Position numbers and translations under genes: made by a program
Part shown: positions 2,715 through 55,332 of the stretch, piece after piece
How the letters are laid out: the number at the start of each line of letters is the position of its first letter
How positions within the stretch are numbered: the first letter of the stretch is position 1
The notes under the pieces: generated by a model
Told to the model about the DNA's origin: nothing
The model's database searches: none
Seen by the model: only the letters and a program-made list of their open reading frames with translations
Assembly: GCA_951406725.2 (NCBI GenBank)
Contig: OX597817.1
Coordinates: 13,578,001-13,642,000 of the forward strand
Direction of reading: 5' to 3'
Source: Octopus vulgaris
Lineage: Eukaryota
Length of the DNA stretch: 64,000 bases

Positions 2715-3655
2715 TTTTACAGTTAGATTTTATTTTTTCACTGTGCTATTGTTTGTCTTGCATGACCCTGCCAGTGCTGGTGCCGCTTAGAAAGCATCCA
2801 GTCCAATGCCATTTAAAAAGCTTCCAGTCCACACTGTAGAGTGGTTGGTGTTTGGAAGGACATCCAACCGTGAAAATCATGCCAAAACTGACCTTGCCTG
2901 TGCTTGTGCCACGTAAAAAGCTCTCAGTCCACCCTGCTGGGTGGTTAGTGTTAGGAAGGGCAACCAGCTGTAAAAACCTGGCAAAAACAGACACAGAAGT
3001 CTGGTGCAGGCTCCTGTCTGGCCAGCCCCTTGTCAAACAGTGCAACCCATGCCAACATAGAAGGCAGACGTTAGATTATGATGATATCATCATTGTTTAA
3101 TGTCCGTTTTCTGCGCTAGCACGGGTTGAACAGTTCGACCGGGGTCTGAGAAACCAGGGGCTGCACCAGGCTCGTCTGATCTGGCAGTGTTTCTACAGCT
3201 TGATGCCCTTCGTAACGCCAACCACTCTGCGAGTGTAGTGGGTGCTTTTTACGTGCCACCTGCACAGGTGCCAGGGGGGTCCGGCATCGGCCACGATCGG
3301 TTGGTGCTTTTAACGTGCCACCGGCACGGAAGCCAGCCAAGGCGGCGCTGGCATTATAATAACTGCAATGTGACATTCTGATCAATACCTTTGAAAACAT
3401 TTTGCAGGCAGAAATAGCCGAGCATTAGACTAAGTACCTTACGCCAGTATTTGACTGTATACTTTTACAGACTAAGTTCAGATGTTGAATCAACTTTGCT
3501 TTTATACCTTCAGGGTTGATAAGATAAGTACTAAACGTGCACTTGAGTAGATTCAGATGATGAGATCCCTCAAATACAAATTAATGACCTTGTGTCAACG
3601 TAAGAAATCAAAATTATTATTATTATTATTATTTTTTCTCCTTTTTTACTTTCAG

Positions 3656-11230: not shown

Positions 11231-11591
11231 TCTCTACATAGATAAACGGCAAAATGTCTGTGTGTGTCCTTTATACAAATCCACAATTTTTCAGTTAGAG
11301 GGCTCACACTTTTTATGGTCATTCAAAACTGTCCAAGAGTGGTTGGGCACATCTTTACATTTCCCTAGTCACCCGAAAAAGCCATTAAAAAATCAATAGA
11401 AGTGACTTTTTATGAATTTTATATCCAAAACCCAATCAAAATGCCCGAAACTTGATACGCCAATTGAATGCCAGCTAGCTGTATGCGATTGGTTGGAGAT
11501 TTGGACAGTACTCGCGTGTATGTGCGCATGCACGCAGCTGTATATGCATGCACTAGCACTATGACCTGGCAACGCCGGGTCATAGTGCTAG
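11231..11591 (+). mobile_element. Non-autonomous Helitron
   Basis: A|TC 5' end, 3' GC-rich hairpin GACCTGGC-AAC-GCCGGGTC, CTAG|T end. Confidence 0.8.
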
Positions 11592-12032
11592 TTTTTAATA
11601 AAAATGTGAAAGTGGTTTATCAACTCAAAAGTCGATATCCACGAAATAATCATACTTTCTGATTTTTCTTATGCTAAAAGCTTTCCTGAGGACTGTCTGT
11701 TCCCTCTTCACAGCAAGACCAATGGTTATGATATTTTTGGGGATTACAAAGATAAAGAGACGGACAGATAGATAGACATAATGCCCATTATAGTAAGGTA
11801 GCAAATCTGCCCATCTACAATGGAAAATAAAGGGATAGTATCGCAAATCTAAACCCTCTAAACCCTCACAAACAATATGGGGTGGAGGTGGGTCTTTGTC
11901 GCCAGAATTTCTTTCACATTTTTATCTCTAAAAACCTTCCTGATTACCAGTATTGCATCACTTTGTAAATTATTGAAACTTTGGACTTGTAAGTTGCTTA
12001 TCACTTACTGCTGTTACTTTTTTTATTTTTAG

Positions 12033-29446: not shown

Positions 29447-29841
29447 CTAGCAGTATCGCCTGGCGTTGCTCGGGTTTGTAAGGGAAATAACTATATAAGC
29501 ATTTTTAGAGATGTAAAGTATAATAGCCATCTCAATATGGCTAACCACAAAGGGGGTGTTACTGTAGCTTTTTACGTTCTGAGATTTAATAATACATTTT
29601 TAGCGAGTTACTTCCCTTATATAATAGTAAAAAAAATGCATTCAAAATGGGAAAAAATGATGGTAAATTTTTTTTTAAATCGTAGACTCATCGTAGACGC
29701 GCGCTAATATCCAGAAGGGCTCGATATGAATCACGACTATAAGATACCCGGTTTTGGTTAAACTGCACCGCAAAATGTGGGAGTAGTTAGGAATCTAAAT
29801 TGTAGGAGACAGACACACAACTTCACTTTTATATATAAAGA
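29447..29841 (-). mobile_element. Non-autonomous Helitron carrying a retrozyme fragment, nested in a mariner-like MITE (~29368-29982)
   Basis: TC...hairpin-CTAG termini at an A|T site; near-identical to 33427-33822. Confidence 0.82.
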
Positions 29842-33426: not shown

Positions 33427-33822
33427 TCTTTATATATAAAAGTGAAGTTGTGTGTGTCTGTCTCCTACGATTTAGATTCCTAACTACTCCCACATTTTGT
33501 GGTGCAGTTTAACCAAAAGCGGATATCTTATAGTCGTGATTCATATCGAGCCCTTCTGGGTATTAGCGCGTGTCTATGATGAGTCTACGATTTAAAAAAA
33601 ATATTACCATCATTTTCCCCCATTTTTAATGAATTTTTTTGCTATTATATAAGGGAAGTAACTCTCTAAAAATGTATTATTAAATCTCAGAACGTAAAAA
33701 GCTACAGTAACACCCCCTTTGTGGTTAGCCATATTGAGATGGCTATTATACTTTACATCTCTAAAAATGCTTATATAGTTATTTCCCTTACAAACCCAAG
33801 CAACGCCGGGCGATACTGCTAG
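33427..33822 (+). mobile_element. Non-autonomous Helitron carrying a retrozyme fragment
   Basis: A|TCTTTATATATAAAA...CCCAAGCAACGCCGGGCGATACTGCTAG|T. Confidence 0.85.
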
Positions 33823-36729: not shown

Positions 36730-37477
36730 CATGGCCAAGTGGAAGCCAACTGAATACGGGAAAAGAGTTACCTGTATTCTGTTAAAAGTATCAAAATGCC
36801 AAGATTGTGACTGCTGCTCAGTGGTCTGTGAACATTGTAAAGGCTGTAAAATGTGACACAGACAGCTGCAATGGAGACTACAAAGCCTAGGCCAGCAGGA
36901 AAGGACACACCAAGCATTCTAACTGCATGTTCTAGCAGAAATTCACCCTAAGACCTTTGAACAGGGCCTTAGGCTCAATTCAGTTGGTTATGTAAAGTTG
37001 TTGGAAACTGTAATCAATCCCTGGCTGGCGAGGGTTGCTGTTGGAAGTCCATATGTGAGGCAGCTGGATTTGGCCCTTTGCCGTACCTCCAGGAAGATCA
37101 GAAGCAGTATTCGGAGAGTATCTATGACTGCGCAAGCCCCAATTTTGGGCATCCTAATTCCCTTGATTGTAATCCCATGGATTACTATGTGTGGGGTGTG
37201 ATTGAAAATGAAACCAACCACTTTGCTAGTAAAATGAAGATCAAGGATGTGTTTGAAAACCTTCCTAAGGACACAGTGAGGAACACATGTGCCAGGTTCC
37301 ATAGCCGTCTTGAGGCTGTAGTGGAAACTAAGGGCAGTTCTTTTGAGTAAACTGTTATCTCCCAGCCATAATCTGGTCGATATTTTCGTTTCTTTTACAA
37401 TTGCTTTTATTTTTGGATGGAATATTGTGTTTTCTTTACCTTTTATGCAAACTGTCAAATTTAGCCCAAACACCCTG
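36730..37477 (+). mobile_element. Degenerate Tc1/mariner transposase remnant (C-terminal ..PNSLDCNPMDYYVWG...RLEAVVETKGSSFE)
   Basis: variant of the SPDLNPxD-W motif in ORF 37078-37350; ends CACCCTG|TA; left boundary approximate. Confidence 0.75.
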
Positions 37478-42258: not shown

Positions 42259-42908
42259 TGTAAAGAGGAGATATGAAGTATTAACACAACTTGAACGTGG
42301 CATAAAAAATAACAACAAATCAACTTTTAGATGAAGTCATTTGATTATTACAGGCAGCTACAGTTTCCACAAAGATTGAGGACTGGATTCAGATGTTCCA
42401 ATCGATTAGAAAGCAAAAGGGAATTACTGCTAATCAATCAATCAATCAATAAGAATCAAGAGAATCCAACAGGCCATACAATAATGAATGATATCAATAG
42501 AAAGAAAATATAATGAGCAGTCAATGGTTGGGTTTGTCTGAGTTTGAACCTTGCTGAAAATCAAAGCTTTTATAACTTTGTAGTTAGAGTGCATTTAATA
42601 CATTTAATAAACTATTTATGAGATCTTTTACACTGGGCCAGTCTAGACCAGTGTTTCTCAAACTATTTGATGGGGCGTACTGGCAGTTTTTTCCCCAATG
42701 TACCAGGAACCGGTAATATTTCTTAGTAATATTAATTTATACCAGAAACAATATATATAATGTAAACTATACTAGCCATCTCAATATGGCTAACCACAAA
42801 GGGTGGGTGTTACTGTAGCTTTTAGCCCCAGGAGATCATCGTCTCCAGCTGGCTTTAGACACACTTTCTGTGCCCTTATGGTATTTGCAAAGGGAGGTCA
42901 TCCCTCTC

Positions 42909-42990
42909 TCGTAAACCTAAGTGATACGCACGGACTGCAGTTTCGAGGTAATTTGCCTCTTGTCAACGTACGGTAATCACCGGTTTACGA
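42909..42990 (-). ncRNA. Type I hammerhead ribozyme, unit 1 (U3-A8 core variant; predicted cleavage 3' of the GUC at 42935-42933)
   Basis: minus strand reads UCGUAAACC-G-GUGAU-UAC-CGUACG-UUGACAA-GAGG-CAAAUUA-CCUC-GAAA-C-UGCA-GUC-CGUGCG-U-AUCAC-UUA-GGUUUACGA; stems I, II and minimal III all pair. Confidence 0.88.
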
Positions 42991-43263
42991 TGAAAGGAAG
43001 ACCTGTTTGCAAATACTTATGGGTTTTTCTAGTAACTTCCGTCATTGATTTCGAAAAACTGTCTGCAAGCAATAATAAATCTCTGAATGAGATGTAAACA
43101 GTAAGCGCTCGACAATGTAAAGTATACTCAGCCATCTCAATATGGCTAACCACTAAGGGTGGGTGTTACTGTAGCTTTTAGCCCCAGGAGATCATCGTCT
43201 CCAGCTGGCTTTAGACACACTTTCTGTGCCCTTATGGTATTTGCAAAGGAGGTCATCCCTCTC

Positions 43264-43345
43264 TCGTAAGCCTAAGTGATACGCACGGACTGCAGTTTCG
43301 AGGTAATTTGCCTCTTGTCAACGTACGGTAATCACCGGTTTACGA
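43264..43345 (-). ncRNA. Hammerhead ribozyme, unit 2
   Basis: same core as unit 1; GUC at 43290-43288. Confidence 0.86.
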
Positions 43346-43618
43346 TGAAAGGAAGACCTGTTTGCAAATACTTATGGGTTTTTCTAGTAACTTCCGTCAT
43401 TGATTTCGAAAAACTGTCTGCAAGCAATAATAAATCTCTGAATGAGATGTAAACAGTAAGCGCTCGACAATGTAAACTATACTAGCCATCTCAATATGGC
43501 TAACCACTAAGGGTGGGTGTTACTGTAGCTTTTAGCCCCAGGAGATCATCGTCTCCAGCTGGCTTTAGACACACTTTCTGTGCCCTTATGGTATTTGCAA
43601 AGGGAGGTCATCCCTCTC

Positions 43619-43699
43619 TCGTAAGCCTAAGTGATACGCACGGACTGCAGTTTCGAGGTATTTGCCTCTTGTCAACGTACGGTAATCACCGGTTTACGA
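43619..43699 (-). ncRNA. Hammerhead ribozyme, unit 3 (loop II 1 nt shorter)
   Basis: same core; GUC at 43645-43643. Confidence 0.84.
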
Positions 43700-43973
43700 T
43701 GAAAGGAAGACCTGTTTGCAAATACTTATGGGTTTTTCTAGTAACTTCCGTCACTGATTTCGAAAAACTGTCTGCAAGCAATAATAAATCTCTGAATGAG
43801 ATGTAAACAGTAAGCGCTCGACAATGTAAAGTATACTCAGCCATCTCAATATGGCTAACCACTAAGGGTGGGTGTTACTGTAGCTTTTAGCCCCAGGAGA
43901 TCATCGTCTCCAGCTGGCTTTAGACACACTTTCTGTGCCCTTATGGTATTTGCAAAGGGAGGTCATCCCTCTC

Positions 43974-44055
43974 TCGTAAGCCTAAGTGATACGCACGGAC
44001 TGCAGTTTCGAGGTAATTTGCCTCTTGTCAACGTACGGTAATCACCGGTTTACGA
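43974..44055 (-). ncRNA. Hammerhead ribozyme, unit 4
   Basis: same core; GUC at 44000-43998. Confidence 0.86.
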
Positions 44056-44328
44056 TGAAAGGAAGACCTGTTTGCAAATACTTATGGGTTTTTCTAGTAA
44101 CTTCCGTCATTGATTTCGAAAAACTGTCTGCAAGCAATAATAAATCTCTGAATGAGATGTAAACAGTAAGCGCTCGACAATGTAAACTATACTAGCCATC
44201 TCAATATGGCTAACCACTAAGGGTGGGTGTTACTGTAGCTTTTAGCCCCAGGAGATCATCGTCTCCAGCTGGCTTTAGACACACTTTCTGTGCCCTTATG
44301 GTATTTGCAAAGGGAGGTCATCCCTCTC

Positions 44329-44410
44329 TCGTAAGCCTAAGTGATACGCACGGACTGCAGTTTCGAGGTAATTTGCCTCTTGTCAACGTACGGTAATCAC
44401 CGGTTTACGA
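44329..44410 (-). ncRNA. Hammerhead ribozyme, unit 5
   Basis: same core; GUC at 44355-44353. Confidence 0.86.
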
Positions 44411-44683
44411 TGAAAGGAAGACCTGTTTGCAAATACTTATGGGTTTTTCTAGTAACTTCCGTCATTGATTTCGAAAAACTGTCTGCAAGCAATAATAAAT
44501 CTCTGAATGAGATGTAAACAGTAAGCGCTCGACAATGTAAACTATACTAGCCATCTCAATATGGCTAACCACTAAGGGTGGGTGTTACTGTAGCTTTTAG
44601 CCCCAGGAGATCATCGTCTCCAGCTGGCTTTAGACACACTTTCTGTGCCCTTATGGTATTTGCAAAGGGAGGTCATCCCTCTC

Positions 44684-44765
44684 TCGTAAGCCTAAGTGAT
44701 ACGCACGGACTGCAGTTTCGAGGTAATTTGCCTCTTGTCAACGTACGGTAATCACCGGTTTACGA
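44684..44765 (-). ncRNA. Hammerhead ribozyme, unit 6
   Basis: same core; GUC at 44710-44708. Confidence 0.86.
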
Positions 44766-45038
44766 TGAAAGGAAGACCTGTTTGCAAATACTTATGGGTT
44801 TTTCTAGTAACTTCCGTCATTGATTTCGAAAAACTGTCTGCAAGCAATAATAAATCTCTGAATGAGATGTAAACAGTAAGCGCTCGACAATGTAAACTAT
44901 ACTAGCCATCTCAATATGGCTAACCACTAAGGGTGGGTGTTACTGTAGCTTTTAGCCCCAGGAGATCATCGTCTCCAGCTGGCTTTAGACACACTTTCTG
45001 TGCCCTTATGGTATTTGCAAAGGGAGGTCATCCCTCTC

Positions 45039-45120
45039 TCGTAAGCCTAAGTGATACGCACGGACTGCAGTTTCGAGGTAATTTGCCTCTTGTCAACGTA
45101 CGGTAATCACCGGTTTACGA
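45039..45120 (-). ncRNA. Hammerhead ribozyme, unit 7
   Basis: same core; GUC at 45065-45063. Confidence 0.86.
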
Positions 45121-45395
45121 TGAAAGGAAGACCTGTTTGCAAATACTTATGGGTTTTTCTAGTAACTTCCGTCATTGATTTCGAAAAACTGTCTGCAAGC
45201 AATAATAAATCTCTGAATGAGATGTAAACAGTAACCGCTCGACAACGTAAAGTATACTCAGCCATCTCAATATGGCTTAACCACTAAGGGTGGGTGTTAC
45301 TGTAGCTTTTAGCCCCAGGAGATCATCGTCTCCAGCTGGCTTTAGACACACTTTCTGTGCCCTTATGGTATTTGCAAAGGGAGGTCATCCCTCTC

Positions 45396-45477
45396 TCGTA
45401 AGCCTAAGTGATACGCACGGACTGCAGTTTCGAGGTAATTTGCCTCTTGTCAACGTACGGTAATCACCGGTTTACGA
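45396..45477 (-). ncRNA. Hammerhead ribozyme, unit 8
   Basis: same core; GUC at 45422-45420. Confidence 0.86.
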
Positions 45478-45750
45478 TGAAAGGAAGACCTGTTTGCAAA
45501 TACTTATGGGTTTTTCTAGTAACTTCCGTCATTGATTTCGAAAAACTGTCTGCAAGCAATAATAAATCTCTGAATGAGATGTAAACAGTAAGCGCTCGAC
45601 AATGTAAACTATACTAGCCATCTCAATATGGCTAACCACTAAGGGTGGGTGTTACTGTAGCTTTTAGCCCCAGGAGATCATCGTCTCCAGCTGGCTTTAG
45701 ACACACTTTCTGTGCCCTTATGGTATTTGCAAAGGGAGGTCATCCCTCTC

Positions 45751-45832
45751 TCGTAAGCCTAAGTGATACGCACGGACTGCAGTTTCGAGGTAATTTGCCT
45801 CTTGTCAACGTACGGTAATCACCGGTTTACGA
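45751..45832 (-). ncRNA. Hammerhead ribozyme, unit 9
   Basis: same core; GUC at 45777-45775. Confidence 0.86.
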
Positions 45833-46107
45833 TGAAAGGAAGACCTGTTTGCAAATACTTATGGGTTTTTCTAGTAACTTCCGTCATTGATTTCGAAAAA
45901 CTGTCTGCAAGCAATAATAAATCTCTGAATGAGATGTAAACAGTAACCGCTCGACAACGTAAAGTATACTCAGCCATCTCAATATGGCTTAACCACTAAG
46001 GGTGGGTGTTACTGTAGCTTTTAGCCCCAGGAGATCATCGTCTCCAGCTGGCTTTAGACACACTTTCTGTGCCCTTATGGTATTTGCAAAGGGAGGTCAT
46101 CCCTCTC

Positions 46108-46189
46108 TCGTAAGCCTAAGTGATACGCACGGACTGCAGTTTCGAGGTAATTTGCCTCTTGTCAACGTACGGTAATCACCGGTTTACGA
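46108..46189 (-). ncRNA. Hammerhead ribozyme, unit 10
   Basis: same core; GUC at 46134-46132. Confidence 0.86.
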
Positions 46190-46736
46190 TGAAAGGAAGA
46201 CCTGTTTGCAAATACTTATGGGTTTTTCTAGTAACTTCCGTCATTGATTTCGAAAAACTGTCTGCAAGCAATAATAAATCTCTGAATGAGATGTAAACAG
46301 TAACCGCTCGACAACGTAAAGTATACTCAGCCATCTCAATATGGCTTAACCACTAAGGGTGGGTGTTACTGTAGCTTTTTCATATATATAATGAATGTAA
46401 TAAAAGTTGACAATTTTTATCTTATATTTATTTTGTAAACAAATAATACAATATTACATAAGCATTTTATATTGTCTCTTTCTTTTTTGGAAACTCACTG
46501 CATACCAGCAGCTGATGACTCATGGACCGGCACCGACTCAGAGACCACCACTTTGAGTAGCACTGGTCTAGACAATAATAATTCTCCTGTTACCAGCATC
46601 TATACCCGCTATGTTTCAGAATTTACCAAAATGGCTAATTTAGATTTATTTCTCCATGATCACGAAAGGATTACAGTGCATTTAATATATTTAATAAACT
46701 ATTCATGAGATCTTTTATACTGGGCTTAGTCTAGAC

Positions 46737-46955
46737 CAGTGCTTTTCAAACTTTTTGCTGGAGCGGAACCCCAAGGAAACATTCCACTGGCTCGAGGAAC
46801 CCCTGTGCAATAATTTAATAGTCTTATGCACACATATCTGCACAGGAGAATTAAAAATTACTGTCGATTTTAGCAGTTTTGTAACTTCTTGTGGAACCCC
46901 TGGACTGTACTGGCGGAACCCTAAGGTTCCGCGGAACCCTGGTTGAAAACTACTG
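46737..46955. mobile_element. Second, different hAT (Charlie-like) MITE
   Basis: TIRs CAGTGCTTTTCAA / TTGAAAACTACTG; 8-bp TSD GTCTAGAC at 46729-46736 and 46956-46963; GGAACCC subterminal repeats. Confidence 0.85.
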
Positions 46956-47689
46956 GTCTAGACAATAATTATTCTATAGTTATCACCATCTATACCCACC
47001 ATGTTTAAGAATCTTCCAAAATGCCAGTTTAAACAACCTCTCTACAGTAATAAGAGTTAGAATTAACTTATTTAATGTAGCGGGTATCACAAATCTAAAC
47101 AATTTTGTTTGTTTTATGTCTGTTGTTTTCATGGGTTAGACAAATATGTTATTGAGACAGTGTTTTCACAATCAGATGCCCTTTCAAAGGAAAAGACAAC
47201 AACATTATTAATAAATATTATTTTAATCATTTAGGTAAGTACAGGAGGCAATATTCTGGACATGTTCCAATCTTATTAAACCTCCTCAGTAGAACACAGA
47301 GTTCAATGTATTTGCCAAAATAATTTTGAGAAAATCACTAAGCAAACATACTACACTGTACGTCAGTAGGCAAGAAATATTAACATACTGGCCTAGTGGT
47401 TAGGGTGTTGCGCTCATTCTCACTAGATGGTGAGTTTGATTCCCAGACCAAGTGGCTATTGTGTTCTTGAGCAAAATACTTCAATTCACATAGTTCCAGT
47501 TCACTCAGCTTTAACCCTGTGATGGACTGGCCTTCTAATCAAGAGGAAGTGTTGGCCTGCCTGCCTAGCCTGCAGAGTGGCATCATTCAAAAGCCAAAAT
47601 GATGCAAAGCACATTGTGACCAGTGATGCATAACAACACCTGGCAGTCTGGTCAAACACATGATCATGTGATACTTATCCTCATTATCG

Positions 47690-54841: not shown

Positions 54842-55332
54842 CTAGCAATGCACCCCAGCATTGCCTGGGTGTTATGACCTACAGATATATTGTGTTATTT
54901 GTTCCTTTCTATTGTACAGAATCAGCACATGAGGAGTATGAAGCAAACAACTCTCCTTTACGAACATGTTTTTCAGTCATTTTCTTGTGAACAACACAGC
55001 AGCTTCCATCTACCAAATTCAGTCACAAGTCTGTAGTTGGCCTAGGGCTATAGTAGAAAACACTTGCCCAATGTACCATACAGACGGACTGAACATAGTT
55101 TGGAAGCAAACTTCTGAACCTAACATGTGTGTGTGTGTTTACATTTTTTGTTAAATCAAGTTTGGTGTCAGGCAGAGTTGCCTCCCTTAGCTAAAAAACC
55201 TCAAAATTGTGCAACCTGACCTCGTTTTTGAGGTTATTTTTGTAGTAAATTCGAAAATTGGCAATGCAGCTTTCGAATCCATAAGGAACATATGCACACA
55301 TACACACACAAAGTCTATTTTATATATTAAGA
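54842..55332 (-). mobile_element. Diverged non-autonomous Helitron
   Basis: CTAG end with hairpin at 54842-54872; TCTTAATATATAAAA 5' end. Confidence 0.6.

Follow-up and report, generated by a model that had tools for sequence, protein, structure and literature searches.

The analyzed window, 64,000 nt of AT-rich DNA with a GC content of 0.29–0.43, contains two copies of a short Helitron-like element and a tandem array with a predicted hammerhead ribozyme, and a 63-bp piece of the array unit recurs within both Helitron-like copies. Dispersed repeats are dense among the matches listed, and they may resemble octopus repeats; with its AT-richness, its repeats and no long reading frame, the window reads as animal non-coding DNA. 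None of its 15 frames of at least 120 aa, judged by reading, was a Penelope or Helitron ORF or an autonomous Rep/helicase partner, one of the 15 also being covered by a Pfam scan, and no tRNA was found in the window.

The first Helitron-like copy (33427–33822, plus strand) is a non-autonomous element of ~396 bp, and the second (29447–29841, minus strand; a span given in the first-pass annotation and recovered here) is 95% identical to it and has unrelated flanks. Both begin with TC, end with CTAG, which fits the CTRR consensus, and sit between A and T with no target duplication; judged by these sequence features, the two elements show the Helitron pattern. The homology between the copies ends at their termini with nothing common beyond, and we therefore rejected a local inverted duplication as their origin. 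A subterminal hairpin was weak (–4.3 kcal/mol, z = +0.75), 153 of 200 shuffled sequences being as stable. The alignment of the copies contains 18 difference events, one of them an end artefact of the coordinates used, and an identical run of 132 nt (33666–33797 against 29472–29603) covers the whole insert. A run of this length has a probability of about 1% by permutation and could reflect conversion, a subfamily mosaic or chance. Elsewhere in the window, a motif similar to the 3′ motif of these copies ends another element at 11564–11591. There, the Helitron-like 3′ end lies within a near-perfect 18-bp hairpin (11553–11592, –31.7 kcal/mol), so its CTAG end is readable on both strands. At 55298–55332 on the minus strand, 35 bp match the 5′ end of the Helitron at 83% and probably belong to another Helitron family.

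Within the first copy, the retrozyme-derived segment occupies 33696–33758 in the sense of the ribozyme RNA and spans positions +110 to about +173, counted from the predicted cleavage site; the segment of the second copy (29511–29573, minus strand) is identical. As the first-pass annotation had noticed, these ~63 bp match the array unit in both copies: against the first unit, copy 1 aligns at 33697–33758 and copy 2 at 29511–29572, each with 93.75% identity across 64 columns (E about 5e-22). An nhmmer search with the array masked returned exactly two matches in the window, the two Helitron segments, and a 16-nt probe gave 13 exact matches in the window (11 in the array and 2 in the Helitron copies) and one with three mismatches, with 0.42 expected. 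No third retrozyme fragment was found in the window, the remaining matches being weak and to other elements (E 0.7–4.6). The segment amounts to 0.18 of a 355-bp unit and contains a 7-bp hairpin and neither a hammerhead nor a full monomer. We therefore class it as a piece derived from a retrozyme and not as a retrozyme in its own right; with no ribozyme, it is most likely an inert passenger.

The segment is enclosed by 12-bp direct repeats (33663–33674 and 33758–33769, plus strand), likely a target-site duplication. The repeats are exact in copy 1, and a length of 12 was reached in 0 of 5,000 local shuffles and in 14 of 8,457 comparable genomic window pairs. The first-pass annotation had placed the fragment between these repeats, and they are real, although not flush with it: 21 bp separate the left repeat from the segment, the right repeat overlaps the segment by 1 or 4 nt depending on which of two 3′ end sites is used, and in copy 2 the left repeat matches at 11 of 12 positions (29595–29606). 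The placement of the segment in both copies agrees with nested retro-insertion and subsequent copying. Amplification of an insertion within a Helitron ancestor, also proposed earlier, is backed by the identical internal location of the fragment in two copies that inserted separately and by the 12-bp repeats, while the term "spread" rests on two copies. To call the fragment "captured" by the Helitron was an overstatement, as the element was most likely just the target. No Helitron-like copy with an empty site or a longer insert was found in the window. Stated in this way, the nesting of a retrozyme piece in a Helitron is very probably correct and an ordinary event: in bats, retroposition into Helitrons was followed by amplification (PMC4224331). 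The bat retrogenes likewise combine a retroposed piece and a target duplication within a non-autonomous Helitron that was later copied; their cargo is L1-retroposed mRNA, whereas the cargo here is a retrozyme fragment with no poly(A) and no empty site in the window (PMC4224331).

The array itself (42759–46380, with the ribozyme on the minus strand) consists of 10 units of 354–357 bp and a 68-bp terminal repeat, or 10.2 × 355 bp. A type I hammerhead motif was predicted in every full unit, in unit 1 at 42927–42972 (minus strand) with cleavage predicted after 42933. Its geometry comprises a 6-bp helix I, a 4-bp helix II and a 2-bp helix III within an 8-nt palindrome, and its core carries the U3–A8 variant; this geometry is the canonical one of animal hammerheads, and covariation of U3 and A8 is described in Schistosoma Penelope elements (PMC4209133). 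In our own descriptor scan, the motif was found in 10 of 10 full units, nowhere else in the window and in 1 of 2,000 shuffled units. Rfam gave no matches in the whole window at the gathering score and, at E up to 10 on 42700–43500, no hammerhead and three chance miRNA matches, and the ribozyme call thus rests on that descriptor. The monomer folds more stably than 100 of 100 shuffles (z = –5.95), while the minimum-energy fold of the motif misses the full hammerhead (–12.9 versus –8.0 kcal/mol). In vitro, eight of nine predicted Xenopus retrozymes failed to cleave (bioRxiv 10.64898/2026.07.22.740005).

These features support the earlier description of the array as a retrozyme, which we word as retrozyme-like with a predicted hammerhead. 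As listed for non-LTR retrozymes, it has tandem monomers, low GC (about 0.42), no coding sequence, a hammerhead motif in each unit and a target duplication of more than 4 bp. The metazoan members have, like the array, monomers of 150–450 bp, GC below 50%, one type I hammerhead per unit and a strong fold (PMC7229834; bioRxiv 10.64898/2026.07.22.740005); the differences here are the U3–A8 core, the two insertions with common ends and the 63-bp ribozyme-free terminal repeat. The array holds no stop-to-stop frame of 120 aa, and neither it nor the Helitron segment has a frame with reverse transcriptase plus GIY-YIG; it is at most a non-autonomous client of a Penelope-like element. Inspection of the array found no PPT and no TG..CA internal repeats. 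An identity as a TRIM or solo LTR, with TG..CA ends and a duplication of 4–6 bp, was rejected: the internal and Helitron copies are without the CA end, and the duplications are 12 bp long.

The insertion site of the array is independent of the Helitron-like elements. Its own 12-bp duplication (42751–42762 and 46382–46393, plus strand), although of low complexity, was equaled in 0 of 5,000 shuffles. The last 4 nt of the left copy are common to the unit, forming a microhomology, and one extra G (in RNA sense) and an extra A lie between the right copy and the array. The duplication is long, as is the 15-bp duplication of a Nematostella retrozyme (PMC4918200). One end of each 12-bp duplication, that of the array and that of the Helitron insert, carries the same 4-mer, which contains ATT and occurs at 0.7% of positions. 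The array lies within a MITE at 42649–46565 with 16-bp terminal inverted repeats (13/16) and an 8-bp duplication at 42641 and 46566. We take this MITE to be of hAT type from such termini and 8-bp duplications. The first-pass annotation had named arrays inside Helitron termini as the outcome that would speak for a Helitron-internal satellite; the array sits in a MITE, bounded by a 12-bp duplication of its own and with no Helitron termini nearby, and that reading therefore fails for it. As a separate observation, the surrounding DNA contains a duplicated segment with copies at 42584–42677 and 46671–46765 and at 46562–46633 and 46952–47023, and each copy holds a different hAT-type MITE (42649–46565 and 46737–46955) at the same 8-bp site.

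We compared the ends of the two insertions on the monomer. In RNA terms, both start at +110 with a run of five A, one more than the four of internal units; the array junction carries the one further G and the Helitron junction does not. At the 3′ end, identity stops at +174 in the array, with 4 nt common with the target, and at +173 in the Helitron copies. A second copy of the end motif lies 23 nt on, and there the identity with the Helitron junction is 10 nt, not 7, and extends to +199, which makes the 3′ end of the segment ambiguous. The first-pass annotation had assigned the fragment the same two endpoints as the array: the 5′ ends coincide, while the 3′ end allows two sites 23 nt apart. 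The segment may have ended at the second site in a donor without the 23 nt; coral retrozyme variants differ by an indel of ~20 nt (PMC7229834), comparable with the 23-nt difference we infer. The end motif occurs twice, 23 nt apart, in each unit (e.g., 44509–44541), like the scar of an earlier insertion or a template jump. In one unit, the second copy lies at 44509–44518 on the minus strand, within a region (44490–44518) that also includes the hairpin matched by the spacer (44490–44510).

With both ends located about 110 and 170–199 nt past the predicted cleavage site, the earlier statement that the insertions end away from it holds. A simple uniform model of a 355-nt circle puts the probability that both ends agree at about 2e-4 and that of a shared 5′ end alone at 0.008–0.03, these statistics resting on two independent insertions. 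A predicted helix ends right before position +110, a placement found for 16 of the 355 positions, and the 35 nt upstream of +110 rank sixth of 355 in stability. Of the fixed initiation and termination points proposed earlier, the coincidence of the ends stands, while two independent insertions do not establish that they are fixed.

The 21-bp spacer between the left repeat and the segment (33675–33695, read on the minus strand; identical in copy 2 at 29574–29594) was missed in the first reading of the sequence. Its best match, at 15 of 21 positions, is the inverted monomer at 44490–44510, corresponding to +198 to +218, and in RNA terms this stretch adjoins the 3′ end of the segment. The match was noticed by eye before testing, and all its tests are post hoc. 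Anywhere in the monomer, 15/21 was reached by 31 of 3,000 dinucleotide shuffles and 41 of 3,000 AT-matched genomic 21-mers, and the local score by 50 and 71 of 3,000, respectively; the collinear score was reached by 11 of 3,000, and within the 21 inverted registers abutting either end site, 17 of 16,875 AT-matched genomic 21-mers gave 15/21. The alignment score was 111 with the spacer inverted, 106.5 with it direct and 103.5 without it, the direct orientation adding no extension. Two unrelated places in the window also match the spacer at 15/21. It is more diverged from the monomer than the main piece (6/21 against 4/64; Fisher p = 0.013), a difference that is not significant for its core (2/15, p = 0.32), and a hairpin is predicted across the spacer–segment junction in both end-site versions. 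By eye, an 11-nt word of the spacer recurs in one abundant dispersed repeat and a word of 11–12 nt at its junction recurs in another, and we treated these as chance. On the strength of this alignment, the spacer is probably an inverted piece of the retrozyme monomer. It resembles the inverted "tail" of Penelope-like elements and points to Penelope-type priming from two strands.

Penelope-like elements are the favored candidates for mobilizing retrozymes, on co-occurrence and pLTR similarity only (PMC7229834, PMC7761336, bioRxiv 10.64898/2026.07.22.740005). The purified Poseidon_Ac protein of the anole nicks AT-rich DNA at ATT and cuts and extends both strands; its cDNA starts internally at two sites, one at either border of a ~34-nt tail that lies downstream of the hammerhead, and self-cleavage is not required (PMC11167929); by our arithmetic from that report, the starts lie about 55 and 90 nt past cleavage. 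Penelope insertions often show, besides duplications of 8–10 bp, an inverted truncated copy at their 5′ side and, at one end, a tail (PMC3846280, PMC8557442). By analogy, the Helitron insert reads as a Penelope insertion in miniature, with a duplication, an inverted tail, a short direct piece and a duplication. This layout and the 4-mer common to both target sites favor Penelope-type priming from both strands.

We consider it somewhat better than an even chance that target-primed reverse transcription, with a Penelope-like element as the probable source of the enzyme, gave rise to the sequence at 33663–33769 in a Helitron-like ancestor, and that this sequence was then passively copied. The process would have begun with staggered nicks 12 bp apart in AT-rich DNA of the ancestor. 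Retrozyme RNA, either uncleaved or circular, would have been the template. On it, one nicked strand would have primed cDNA synthesis from an internal site (+170 to +199, immediately 3′ of a hairpin), and the other about 20 nt further, at +218, copying back to the first start and leaving the inverted 21-bp spacer in the manner of a Penelope tail. The main cDNA would have stopped on its first pass at +110, the foot of a stable hairpin, and the cDNA of the array at the same position after one or more full rounds. The array would then likely have grown or been reshuffled in place, and the Helitron-like family would likely have copied the segment passively. Against this account count the small number of independent insertions (two), the absence of an empty Helitron copy and of a Penelope ORF from the window, the divergence and post hoc choice of the spacer match, the anole start sites, which lie closer to the cleavage site, and a ribozyme that Rfam does not recognize and that the minimum-energy fold does not fully form. 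Further, the array is without an inverted tail; the reading in which the spacer abuts the segment needs a donor without the 23 nt present in the array units; and, against a stall at +110, the extra G at the array 5′ junction fits a capped RNA end equally well.

The published model for metazoan non-LTR retrozymes is a multimeric cDNA copied from a circle (Cervera and de la Peña 2020, PMC7229834; Li et al., bioRxiv 10.64898/2026.07.22.740005). In our array, the variants common to several units all lie in or just beside the terminal 63-bp segment and alternate with a period of two units, the others being singletons, and the end unit keeps a base that is common with the Helitron segment and found in no other unit. 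From the alternation and this base, the length of the array likely reflects amplification in place or a mixed template and not a lone circle copied in one round. Single-pass copying of a uniform circle does not fit the alternating variants and was rejected, though an assembly error is possible.

The resemblance to Penelope-like elements such as Poseidon_Ac and the Adineta Penelopes comprises ends downstream of the hammerhead, an AT-rich target, a long duplication and, in the Helitron insert, an apparent inverted 5′ piece and a tail-like segment (PMC11167929, PMC3846280). Unlike these elements, the array and segment have no ORF, and the terminal repeat is without the ribozyme that pLTRs include. 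The putative start sites lie 170–218 nt past the cleavage site, in contrast to about 55–90 nt in Poseidon_Ac, and the junctions show microhomology of 1–4 nt, whereas the anole enzyme starts without homology (PMC11167929). A Penelope-like partner would be expected to initiate internally, and, since internal initiation downstream of the ribozyme has been shown for such an element (PMC11167929), the initiation half of the proposal is not new. Both internal initiation and retroposition into Helitrons are already published; the new part is a possible fixed stop and a possible inverted tail, from two insertions. Our literature search, which covered few subscription journals, returned nothing on retrozyme end positions or on retrozyme pieces in Helitrons.

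A closely related explanation keeps the same route and places the start of the template RNA itself at +110, set by an internal promoter in the monomer, so that the cDNA runs off its end and the segment and the array differ in the monomer used for initiation. The extra A in both junctions and the extra G at the array 5′ junction, as a cap-templated G would be, argue for it, although one base carries little weight and no such G is present at the Helitron junction. The hairpin directly upstream of +110 is left unexplained, and no pol III A or B box was found by consensus. Penelope pLTRs do contain the transcription start (PMC8557442), and we regard run-off as doubtful yet deserving of weight.

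Two further explanations retain parts of the proposal. In the first, a longer insertion of n + 0.18 units in the Helitron ancestor shrank when its 63-bp terminal repeats recombined or slipped against each other, as in the formation of solo LTRs. This would give exactly the structure seen, solo pLTRs are reported (PMC3846280), and the alternating variants and the outgroup state in the end unit make rearrangement in place likely; on the other side, the last step has only 63 bp of homology to act on and the window holds no longer-insert Helitron copy. We judge it unlikely, and as it still needs shared ends in two insertions, it alters only the step after integration. In the second, a set position exists for the 3′ start alone, a feature common to all target-primed elements; truncation would have given both insertions one 5′ end by chance, and the spacer would be filler DNA. 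Truncation at the 5′ end is the rule for Penelope-like elements (PMC8557442), only two insertions were compared, and the post hoc spacer tests reach 1–2% when unrestricted. Nevertheless, it requires a coincidence of 1–3% for the 5′ end and a separate one of 0.1–2% for the spacer, and we consider it improbable.

That the array is a Helitron- or Helentron-internal satellite, or the 63 bp native Helitron DNA or a rolling-circle capture, is very improbable: central repeats are common in Helentrons of the Pacific oyster (HINE) and tie a satellite-like repeat to a rolling-circle element (PMC7492417), and a hairpin ending in CTAG occurs at six array positions, but our array lies outside the Helitron with a hammerhead motif and a 12-bp duplication, which Helitrons do not make, and the Helitron holds 0.18 of a unit. 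On the same grounds of the duplication and the MITE, we rejected a Helentron central satellite, and likewise a rolling-circle origin at the hairpin–CTAG of the unit, which is not at the array end and is absent from other units and the Helitron segment.

Returning to integration by target-primed reverse transcription, a broader model may be proposed tentatively, at less than even probability: retrozymes would be integrated by the Penelope machinery between set sites, with two neighboring internal starts on both strands, an inverted tail and a set stop at +110, so that each product would consist of n + 0.18 monomers and bear a very short terminal repeat that excludes the ribozyme. The Helitron would have kept the n = 0 product, and cleavage would not set the insertion ends. 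The anatomy of the junctions is a direct test of the enzyme behind the mobility of animal retrozymes. Should ends cluster at +110 and +170–199 and inverted tails recur, retrozymes would carry a Penelope signature, and a 110-nt stretch of RNA would emerge as a defined candidate for the recognition and start signal. The value of the Helitron nesting is that it has frozen a minimal insertion product. If the Penelope route is true, it would provide a genomic footprint tying retrozymes to Penelope enzymes and a testable handle on their movement in animal genomes.

Apart from these elements, a 125-aa open frame at 36973–37350 showed no significant Pfam match; it looks like a remnant of a Tc1/mariner transposase. 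Among the matches listed, a palindromic repeat family lies near 2897–3354, and two SINE-like families are both very abundant, one of ~400 bp at 2305–2738 and more than 12 other places and one of ~250 bp at 303–748 and about seven more.
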